A stretch of DNA of 64,000 nt from Antedon mediterranea (taxonomy: Eukaryota > Animalia > Echinodermata), in the NCBI RefSeq assembly GCF_964355755.1, contig NC_092670.1, positions 32,476,388 through 32,540,387 of the forward strand. Direction: 5' to 3'. A model generated the notes under the pieces. That model had not been told where the DNA came from. It saw only the letters and a list, made by a program, of their open reading frames with translations, and ran no database searches. This document shows, piece by piece, positions 54,801 through 57,800 of this stretch; positions within the stretch are counted from its first letter, which is position 1, and the number at the start of each line of letters is the position of its first letter. A program made the translations under genes and the position numbers.

Positions 54801-57800
54801 CTAGCAGGGATCATATTTTGAGCCTTGGACCCCTCTTCAGAAAGTCTCCCCCCACTTGGCACCCGTTTGTGGCGTCTACACCATTTCTGGAGAGTTTGAA
54901 CTCCTCTTCATTGATTATAATCTCCTTATTGAGGACCGCTTAATGGAGCTGTTAATGCTTGCAAGGTACTCAACCTCTTCATATTTTATGACCTCCACAT
55001 ATTTTATGTGTTGTACTGTATGTATGTTATATCGAGGGCCCTGAATGATCAGTTCTATTAGGAACTGGATAGGCTACCCTCAGTAAATATGGTGATAAAT
55101 AAATAAATAAAAAGCTTGGTTCCCAATAAAATAAAACAAAACGCAAAGATGTATAAACACAAGTATTGACCAATCACAAGCAATGGATTATACGAACTGT
55201 TGCCTTTCATTGGTCAACTTGCTTGTGTTGTGCTTACTTCCTAACAGTTCATCTTTAATGGTATTACCAGGCTTTAGCAAGCTTGTTCTTCCATTTGAGT
55301 CTGGAGACCTCCTTGAGAGATGGATGTTTTTGCAAATTAATCTACTGTTGTGATTTTAGGTTGGTGCTGGAATGGCCTGATAATTAAAGCTACTAGGCTT
55401 ACCTTAACAGTCCCGCTTGTCCTAAATCACACACAATGTAAATGAGCAAGTCCAAGTCAATATATATAATCGGTATCTTCCGTCTTGTTTGCTTGGTTCC
55501 CTGCTTCGAATACACCGGTTCGGGCGGCGTCGAGGTCCCACGTTACCATTTGCATACCCCCTGTATGCAAATCAAGCTATCGGGGAGACGCCCTCGTCCG
55601 GTCGGAGGGGTGGTCTGTTTACCCAGCGGGCGCTAAGTTTCACAACACTCCTCCCGTGTTTGAAAAGCGGGCACCCCGTCCTGGATCCACCTTGGAGGTG
55701 AACTGGGTGATTTGCGTACGTTGAGAAATACCCGATACCCGTAGCTATGTAGACCGCTCCCAACGATCTCTTCAGGTAGTCACTGGCCGTGGGACATGAC
55801 TGTAGCACCGTCCTCTGCTTCCCTGGATACCTGAAAGATATAAATAAAAATAATTGTAAAACAAAATTTTCTTTTGAAACGGAAAATTTCTGGAAAAACT
55901 GAAAACTTCTGGTTGTGGGTGAGCCAGGGGCTCAAAGGAGATCTCGACCGTTCTTCCATGTCAGATCAATGCCCTGCATGGGGCTCCGGTCGAGCACCTG
56001 TCCCACGGCGACGGCAGTCGCCCCCAACAGATGAGGTGCTCCGACTGTCCGGTCCGTTGGACCCCATCGCCGATCTTCATTTGTGGCGATGAAACACAGG
56101 CCCCTGCGTTGATCGGCCGTAAAGCCCGTCACTCGGATGGTCACGCTAAAGTATGTCCTGGGGAAATGCCGGTTGCTACGGCTTTCGTGGAAGCGTAGTC
56201 TGCCAGAAGCAGCCGCTGTTCCTTCAACACGCAACTTAGACGTAGGATGTCCAAGACACGATAGTAGCACTCCTCCCCAGTGACATCGCCTTGAACTCCA
56301 GAAATTTCAAGACACAGGATGCGGTGGTGGCGGCGGCCGTCCAAGCAACGACCCAACACCCTCTTTAGCAGCTGATCTTGTCTCGGCCAATCCGTAGGCG
56401 GGGCCGAATGGTCCAACCCCACTCTCCCGATTACTCGAACATCTCGAGTTCGGGCTAGGGCCAGAAGCCTATCGAATTGAACCGTTGTCGGCGAGTAGCC
56501 AGGAGCCACTCCCAAACTCGCCGCACAGCCGTTCCTCGTCAATCCGCCAATCTCCCGCTCGGTGGGGTAAGTGGTTGGATCGCCAAACAGGGCAAACCCG
56601 CCTACCACTTCCACAGGCTGTGTTCCACTTCCCACCCGCACCGCTCGCTCCACGTCCCAGAGGTCCGCTCGTCGGGAAAGTTGCAGGTCCCTCTGCAACC
56701 AGTCCAGATGGAACCAAGCGAGGCCGATGTACCCTGCACAATCGGTGGTGCCGCCACTGATCTACCATCCTTCGGTGCCGGGGCATCGCGCTTGGTCGGT
56801 CGCTCTCCATGCTCTCTACCTGTGGCTTTCCTCTTCGTCAGGTTTTTGGCGGTCTGGTCCACCGCCGGTTCCTCCTCCTCAGCCCGACGACCACACTCCT
56901 TCAACAGCTCTTCACCAAAAGAAGCGATAAGAGCAATCACACAGCGCCAGTGTATGAGAGCCGATGGGTGACTGATAACCGGAGCTATCGTGAGAGGCGG
57001 GGGCCTCCTTCCTCCAATTACCCGTGTCAGCATAAGGATGGCCCGACGAGTTTTCCTATCCGGAGGTAGGACGTCAGTGCGATCCCCCATTAGGTGCTGG
57101 ACGTTCAGGAGACACCTCAAGTCCTCCGGTGTCTTGCCTTTACCAAGGCCCTCCGTCGCCAAGCTGGTGAGTGCCCGCCACTGCACTCGTGCCCTCCGCC
57201 AAGAACTTCGTTCCAGTGGTCGAAAACACCCCGGAGCATGCATCTTCGTGACGTGGACCCGCATGTTGGCCACTCGACCACATCCCAGATGGCATGTTGG
57301 TTTCTGCTTGGCTGGGGTGCTCGCCACCGGGCAAGCCCCTCCCGTATCCCCAGCCACCCCTTCTTCTTTCGGGATCAATTCCTCCCGCGCACCCGGGCTA
57401 GCCAGGAGCACATCTTCCTCCATTTCGGAAACATCCGTCTCACTTCCGTCAGCGAACGGTAACTGGTCCATACCTGAGAGGGAAGAGAAGATAAACGTGA
57501 GCACTTAATTGTTAACCGAGGACTTGCAGTCCGCACATCGATATAAGTCGATGTCCAAGGCCTCAGATGGTGCAATATTCACACATGCACCGTGGTACCA
57601 CACCTCGCAATAGTCACATTGTATCATAAATGAGCCGGCCCAGGGCTGGCGACATAGACAATACAACGGTCCCGCATCCGGATCTGTAGGTGAAGAAAGA
57701 GAAGGTAAATTAAAATCAGCCAGCCATTTAGGAAGTTGTCGATCCCGACAGGGCTTCAGCTTGTCATGATTTAAAACCACCGTCTTGTTCCTCAGCTGCA

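Follow-up and report, generated by a model that had tools for sequence, protein, structure and literature searches.

The stretch of DNA analyzed here (hereafter the window) consists of 64,000 nucleotides of contig NC_092670.1 from the crinoid Antedon mediterranea. On its minus strand it carries a long terminal repeat (LTR) retrotransposon of the Gypsy/Metaviridae type, in which paired TG...CA LTRs, a target-site duplication, a primer-binding site (PBS) and a polypurine tract (PPT) are all present. Past the pol gene of this element lies a third open reading frame (ORF3), in which a C2H2-type finger and a helical domain with an HWR motif precede a TatD barrel. On balance, we interpret this element as a dead copy from an old Gypsy clade which possesses gag, a pol with a terminal PHD finger and a probably spliced finger-HWR-TatD gene, the products of which would in most members be nucleases and in the branch leading to this copy a binding protein. 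The features upon which this interpretation is based are given below; L013, L030 and L041 are related elements found in other DNA.

62498..62501, no strand: target-site duplication of 4 bp, outer copy, identical to the bases at 55342-55345
62210..62497, minus strand: 5' LTR (TGTTG...CAACA), delimited by alignment to the 3' LTR and inspection of its ends
62195..62208, minus strand: primer-binding site TGGCGCTGCGAGCA, 1 nt past the 5' LTR
61671..61676, minus strand: donor-like GTAAGT in the 5' leader, the sole match to the donor pattern in 61301-62208
60729..61481, minus strand: gag remnant with an N-terminal helix-hairpin-helix and a low-complexity tail (HHH_3, E 3e-4)
60279..60788, minus strand: reverse transcriptase, first part (RVT_1, E 1e-20)
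59105..60277, minus strand: RNase H and integrase zinc domain (Pfam, E 6e-29 and 5e-17)
58295..59100, minus strand: integrase core (rve, E 1.5e-10), 61-67% identical to L030 and L041
57824..58294, no strand: AT-rich secondary insertion of ~470 bp in the integrase C-terminus, with flanking 5-bp direct repeats (from the sequence and its GC profile)
57526..57660, minus strand: PHD finger at the pol end (PF00628, E 1e-9), fused to the integrase in L013, L030 and L041
57474..57495, minus strand: acceptor-like polypyrimidine tract (14/14 pyrimidines) with CAG, 2 nt ahead of the ORF3 ATG
55932..57471, minus strand: ORF3, broken, with an acidic N-terminus, C2H2 finger, HWR domain and TatD barrel
56908..57294, minus strand: C2H2-type finger (57238-57294) and HWR helical domain (HWR at 56944-56952), 70 bits with the profile of relatives
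55935..56725, minus strand: TatD domain, six scorable active-site residues replaced
55648..55655, minus strand: polypurine tract GGGAGGAG, abutting the 3' LTR
55346..55647, minus strand: 3' LTR, delimited by alignment to the 5' LTR
55342..55345, no strand: target-site duplication of 4 bp, other copy

The two LTRs are identical at 285 of the 308 aligned columns (9 mismatches and 14 gap positions), and the PBS is one that we take to be tRNA-Ser-like. The pol gene, which ends with a stop at 57505-57507, shows the order reverse transcriptase (RT), RNase H (RH), integrase (IN) with the protease (PR) absent; the complete order PR-RT-RH-IN is seen in L013, L030 and L041. As indicated by a gap relative to the pol of L030 and L041, about 95-100 RT codons are gone after the first RT part. 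No capsid, zinc knuckle or protease was detected in the window gag, which also gave no match to the later gag/protease portions of L030 and L041. The AT-rich block in the integrase is possibly a small nested transposon; that it is an intron is ruled out by the 5-bp repeat flanking it and by the continuous pol of L030 and L041. The copy in the window is dead, its gag being mostly lost, its protease lost, its RT gapped, its integrase interrupted and its ORF3 broken in frame.

An initial annotation of this DNA had placed a GC-rich ORF between the pol stop and the PPT, and such an ORF is present there on the minus strand, starting from the ATG at 57471 and stopping at 55932, with a GC content of 0.51-0.65 per 100 nt versus ~0.32 for the host DNA. 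The finger, HWR and TatD-like motifs listed for it were all found in the order that had been given. The number of frameshifts had to be revised, since comparison with relatives and with P0001, an Antedon mediterranea RefSeq model which at 91% identity is the nearest protein to this ORF, indicated four breaks (near 56720, 56175, 56070 and 56050, the last two compensating) and not two. The first break is best placed inside the DxHxH motif (56722), by a margin of just 1-2 bits, and the earlier reading of HxH as WFH may be a wrong-frame reading. When read through with X at the breaks, ORF3 contains no in-frame stop and scores 262 bits with a family profile made without P0001. The absence of a TatD match for the repaired ORF had been set beforehand as refuting, but the read-through scored 172 bits (E 1e-54 for one sequence) with a TatD profile of relatives made without the Antedon copies. 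The middle piece of ORF3 matched Pfam TatD (PF01026) with E 8e-5 and 22.5 bits, which is under the 27-bit cut-off that P0001 passes with 29.3 bits, and a Pfam scan of the window finger/HWR region gave no family match and no C2H2 match. The window ORF3 piece alone had no match among longer proteins or PDB sequences, and with P0001 as the query nothing useful was found in PDB sequences, plasmids, phages or viral contigs. A second splice-acceptor-like site is seen past the ORF3 stop (window 55831-55860, minus strand), and the P0001 model appears to be spliced to the matching place.

A search with P0001 identified 285 related protein clusters at E<=1e-3, of which 150 were listed. All 62 of the listed clusters that were scanned passed the Pfam TatD cut-off. 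The finger-HWR domain was found in 51 of the 56 proteins with at least 200 aa ahead of the barrel; its finger ligands C, C, H and H are kept in 63/63, 65/66, 69/69 and 71/71 family rows, and the H, W and R residues in 79, 85 and 75 of 88 rows, respectively. Based upon its near-invariant C-x-C...H-x-H ligands, the finger is of the C2H2 type and zinc binding is predicted for it; a search of the Atlas with the finger-HWR domain gave no informative match (best 0.80). In regard to the barrel, the family profile matches the E. coli YcfH structure 1yix (E 2e-33), and a TIM-barrel amidohydrolase fold is predicted for the relative P0005 from a structure model (pLDDT 89.6), the best match of which is TatD 6l25 (E 2.5e-15). 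A single-sequence fold of the L010 ORF3 had a pLDDT of 37.8, too low for use. Membership in QatD was rejected (18 bits versus a cut-off of 230). Among 19 clusters that were looked up, the named sources were Anneissia (three clusters), Pecten, Argopecten, Patiria, Haliotis, Lingula and one bin labelled Ca. Thiodiazotropha, and one further cluster bore a generic TatD name only; the named family hosts are crinoids, starfish, scallops, abalone and a brachiopod. A single cluster, at 90% identity, comprises 24 members that are spread over several large contigs. In the models P0051, P0064 and P0105, TatD is fused with a sulfatase, a CCHC knuckle or a C2H2 repeat, these being either annotation fusions or real swaps.

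Loci in other DNA were sought with a pattern for the commonest HxH motif, which gave 26 metagenome and 14 genome-bin loci; among these 40 there were 29 family members, three TatDs without the finger and eight with no match. A PHD-ended Gypsy pol is present directly upstream and on the same strand in 14 of the 29 family loci, at 461-1638 nt ahead of the finger, and it was found in all 10 family loci with at least 1700 nt of upstream DNA. The second refuting condition set beforehand, that other copies of the element lack this ORF, is not borne out, since other elements of the lineage carry it directly past pol. Three of the loci (L013, L030 and L041) are complete and unbroken units of gag, pol (PR-RT-RH-IN-PHD) and ORF3, and L045 is an apparent fourth whole unit that is circularly permuted; the gag of L013 and L030 starts with a helix-hairpin-helix, as does that of the window. 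By Pfam, the ORF3 of the window and of the whole elements has TatD matches only and no envelope match, and what had been called the env position is indeed the place of a third ORF after pol, but nothing shows that an env gene was ever there. The family homologues are entered as ordinary genes in public annotations, which might be taken to indicate a one-off capture of a host TatD by this single element. However, the same position past a PHD-ended pol is seen in 14 independent loci, the TatDs of which are up to 69% different, and this pol linkage together with the whole gag-pol-ORF3 elements refutes a one-off event, to which we assign practically no probability.

The PHD at the pol end (window 57526-57660) and the frequent helix-hairpin-helix of gag (61370-61481) could serve as marks of the clade, and the PHD finger may guide integration to marked chromatin. 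A search for Pol-TatD fusions among proteins of 1552-4430 aa found P0152 only, a result that carries little weight. The HxH motif pattern had no match in viral contigs, where the family alignment found six ordinary TatDs without pol, and the dead P0056/P0168 branch gave no match in genome contigs. Eight loci (L033, L036, L037, L040-L042, L044 and L045) are from bins labelled Sedimenticola sp., and P0056 and P0168 also come from bacterial bins, the bins for family members being labelled Sedimenticola sp. and Ca. Thiodiazotropha. As a eukaryotic Gypsy pol with its PHD adjoins five of the eight loci, a bacterial origin of L033-L045 was rejected, and these loci are probably animal DNA binned with a symbiont. 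A figure legend on the giant squid Hox cluster names "TATDN2" as one of the transposon-like genes within it (PMC6962438), and this could be such an element.

In a tree of 43 rows picked from 154, the outgroup of which includes four bacterial-type TatDs from viral contigs, the 38 family rows formed one branch with support of 100/99. P0152, a cellular-type TatD of 2371 aa which we take to be TATDN2-like by its motifs, was placed between the family and the four bacterial-type rows, and its score with the family profile was 175 bits, the values for YcfH, TATDN3 and TATDN1 being 119, 64 and 46, respectively. The integrase and TatD distances were correlated across eight loci (Mantel r 0.59, p 0.002; r 0.53, p 0.02 with the window included), and the trees for these two proteins had three groups in common, with L010 placed differently. 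Between loci, TatD is 40-69% different where integrase is 17-53% different. ORF3 is under purifying selection, as seen from dN/dS values of 0.15-0.27 in six close ORF3 pairs. These pairs are partly non-independent, and five pairs at greater distance show saturation of their silent sites. A single ancient capture of a cellular TatD, followed by its inheritance with pol, is very probable, and the proposal of a retrotransposon lineage with a captured TatD is upheld by the family, the pol linkage and the single branch.

Expression of ORF3 from a spliced subgenomic RNA is predicted with good confidence based upon the sequence at its start. Past the pol stop, a pyrimidine tract and AG with an ATG within 8 nt are present in 10 of 15 loci including the window, versus 2.1 expected from resampled sequence; this pattern was set after viewing the window and it is missing in five of the 15 loci, both of which lessen its force. 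The GTAAGT in the 5' leader is a possible partner of the ORF3 acceptor. In rotifer LTR elements, the ORF3s are reported to be typically spliced (PMC5408684).

All seven active-site residues are kept in 90 of the 114 rows that cover all seven columns, and most members of the clade are likely two-metal nucleases, as predicted from these residues. At least three of the seven are lost in 12 of the 114 rows, and the partly covered P0001 and P0103 add two more. For the His pair of HxH, 109 and 107 of 121 relatives have H and H, and the window has a frame break in or near this motif; among the 150 rows that cover the five columns of the GE Glu, two further His and the ExD acids, 122 have all five intact. 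The window and P0001 have R, E, A, G and N there. The GE to GR substitution that had been described is real, and five further residues of the active site are also changed: the window and P0001 have replacements at each of the six scorable positions (the GxHP His, the GE Glu, two His and both ExD acids). The three lost acids are the counterparts of E593/E705/D707 in TATDN2 and of E91/E201/D203 in E. coli TatD, and mutation of those acids is reported to stop or weaken the activity of both enzymes (PMC10711561). Parsimony on the 43-row tree gave eight active-site changes, with several dead rows nested with intact sisters in well-supported groups. Loss of the active site recurs across several branches, and of the rows compared it is those of the crinoid branch in which the scorable active site has been lost most completely. 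The earlier idea of an inactive module fits the sub-lineage of the window, but it does not describe the clade, most of which keeps the active site.

The replaced residues could also be ordinary decay of a disused gene, with no pseudo-nuclease phase and the clade itself being real. This copy is dead, its ORF3 being broken in four places and its gag and pol having lost large parts; P0001, the gene model of which omits the region of break 1, may have this break too; and non-catalytic conserved residues are partly lost, 67% being kept versus a mean of 88% in intact rows. However, the intact sister P0002 retains a similar 72%, and the LTRs differ at just 9 of 294 positions. P0001 keeps none of the six active-site residues versus 31 of 46 other conserved columns (p 0.003), and of the columns on which the two crinoid sisters agree, it retains 32 of 35 conserved versus 28 of 44 variable ones (p 0.004), so that conserved columns are retained better than variable ones. 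Further, the six window codons (18 bases) are at least 11 base changes away from the family residues, yet the 492 codons contain no stop, and when neutral drift was simulated to the 28% divergence of this branch, none of 300 runs was stop-free. Because of this number of changes without a stop, and of the simulation, the replaced residues do not appear to be post-insertion decay, and we regard decay as very unlikely. Judging from the sequence, it is quite probable that the Antedon branch passed through a phase with a selected pseudo-nuclease prior to the death of this copy, and ORF3 of this branch is likely a non-cutting binder in which the fold was kept.

A number of points weigh against the interpretation of the clade and of its dead members given above. 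Paired LTRs were recovered in the window only, the other contigs ending in collapsed repeats. Fifteen of the 29 family loci have no pol directly upstream; the DNA of all of these extends for less than 1400 nt ahead of the finger, and in L016, L031 and L033, which have 1.1-1.4 kb of upstream DNA, no pol was seen. Every DNA locus was obtained via an intact HxH motif, and the window is therefore the sole dead member in a DNA context. Instead of being an independent copy, P0001 may represent this same insertion in a closely related species, and ORF3 may already have been broken in the common ancestor of P0001 and the window copy. Among the dead family proteins, some may derive from domesticated host genes or from ordinary pseudogenes. 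Lastly, P0152 is the sole non-bacterial-type cellular TatD in the tree, which includes no named TATDN2, and the donor is thus poorly fixed.

In the mechanism that we tentatively propose, by analogy with TATDN2, the spliced message would give rise to a separate protein consisting of a disordered N-terminus, the finger-HWR module and the TatD barrel. The finger/HWR part together with the disordered N-terminus would bind the element's own transcript or locus, and the barrel would trim RNA in R-loops or single-stranded by-products of the element, so that, in the germ line, the locus would stay transcribable with less damage or fewer silencing signals. Binding would in this view be the main task and cutting a supplement to it, and the repeated loss of cutting would be explained by its being dispensable. 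Human TATDN2, which is built in a similar way, is reported to degrade the RNA of R-loops and to require its disordered N-terminus for binding (PMC10711561). Counting against this mechanism, TATDN2 is described as having little activity on plain RNA:DNA duplexes or DNA (PMC10711561), pol has an RNase H of its own, and 3'-5' exonuclease/AP endonuclease activity is described for other TatDs (PMC10085689).

We nevertheless favour binding and trimming of the element's own R-loops and single strands over two alternatives. ORF3 could act in counter-defence by destroying or masking nucleic acids that the host uses against the element (small-RNA precursors, stray cDNA), with the dead versions acting as decoys. 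A separate and probably spliced accessory gene would be in keeping with such a role, as would the faster divergence of TatD than of integrase, the repeated loss of catalysis and the finding that a parasite TatD is a virulence nuclease against host DNA traps (PMC10085689). However, no positive selection was seen in the measured pairs, and we consider counter-defence doubtful. Alternatively, ORF3 could be packaged and trim 3' ends, clear abasic sites or aid integration repair beside the PHD-guided integrase. 3'-5' exonuclease and AP endonuclease activities are known for TATDN1, TATDN3 and the E. coli TatDs (PMC10085689) and ORF3 is co-inherited with integrase, but it lies outside the pol polyprotein in every whole element seen and a core replication step is unlikely to survive repeated catalytic loss; a role in cDNA processing is in our view unlikely.

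Elements of comparable design have been reported. In the Juno and Vesta LTR retrotransposons of bdelloid rotifers, ORF3 is a DEDDy 3'-5' exonuclease (PMC5408684). These are likewise Gypsy-type elements with a captured nuclease in a non-env third ORF that forms a separate transcription unit, but the fold is DEDDy and not the TatD TIM barrel seen here, and the rotifer enzymes keep their catalytic residues (PMC5408684). Unlike Juno and Vesta, the TatD clade has a finger-HWR domain ahead of the barrel and a PHD-ended pol, and it is found in at least three phyla. With the TatDs of group II (YcfH, TATDN2, TATDN3) it has in common the fold and, in most members, the HxH, E, H, H and ExD residues (PMC10085689, PMC10711561), and with TATDN2 a long disordered N-terminus (PMC10711561). 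It differs from group II in being a multicopy retrotransposon gene, with an extra finger-HWR domain and inserts after HxH, and in that the active site has been lost in several branches, at all six scorable positions in that of the window. In Gypsy elements of orchids, an extra ORF is an AlkB m6A demethylase with in vitro activity, recent and from one plant genus; there also a host nucleic-acid enzyme was fixed as an extra Gypsy ORF (PMC9289625). In contrast, the TatD clade is old and of animals, and its ORF3 has the fold of a nuclease, with activity predicted for most members. As in chromoviruses, a chromatin-reader domain is fused to the integrase C-terminus, a chromodomain there and a PHD finger here (PMC12440569). 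As in errantiviruses, there is a third ORF past pol with a probably spliced message (PMC13524379), but ORF3 has an enzyme fold instead of an envelope match. In the survey reported in the same source, env-carrying Gypsy elements were not found in echinoderms (PMC13524379).

In the literature on TatD with retrotransposon, Gypsy or LTR, no account of the clade was found among the matches listed, Repbase, Dfam, supplements and subscription papers being outside the scope of this search. The clade may have been catalogued already without its TatD domain being described, and it is a real and apparently undescribed variant of ORF3-bearing Gypsy elements. A broader proposal, to which we give slightly less than even credence, is that this is an old, undescribed clade of marine invertebrates (deuterostomes and lophotrochozoans) with a three-part kit of helix-hairpin-helix gag, PHD-tipped integrase and spliced finger-HWR-TatD protein, in which a captured TATDN2-type nuclease would manage R-loops or host surveillance and would repeatedly have turned into a selected pseudo-enzyme, most completely so, among the cases found, in this crinoid branch, and that hundreds of invertebrate genes entered in databases as "TatD/YcfH-like", some in symbiont genomes, are these elements. 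It is rare for an LTR retrotransposon to capture a host enzyme stably, and such a capture indicates a pressure that the element faces; from the retention of TatD over at least three phyla, it would seem that these elements are limited in invertebrate germ lines by R-loops, stray single strands or nucleic-acid surveillance. The clade supplies natural active and dead forms of one accessory protein, so that cutting and binding can be directly compared. It also constitutes an annotation trap, since many invertebrate "YcfH-like" genes and the TatD genes in some symbiont bins are probably parts of retrotransposons.

The element is antisense to, and directly past the exons of, an Nramp gene, for which no later exon was identified elsewhere in the window.

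44147-54818, plus strand: Nramp/SLC11 metal transporter exons, upstream of the element

Two other fragments may be parts of LINE elements, viz. the ORF at 63050-64000 (plus strand), which resembles the start of a LINE endonuclease, and the fragment at 49701-50117 (minus strand), which resembles a LINE pol end. Between 7053 and 42812 the window has about seven diverged repeats (families D3-D13) with a spacing of 3.5-12 kb, which resemble a tandem gene array, and long 15-bp tandem arrays occur near 10308-10979 and from 17155 on.

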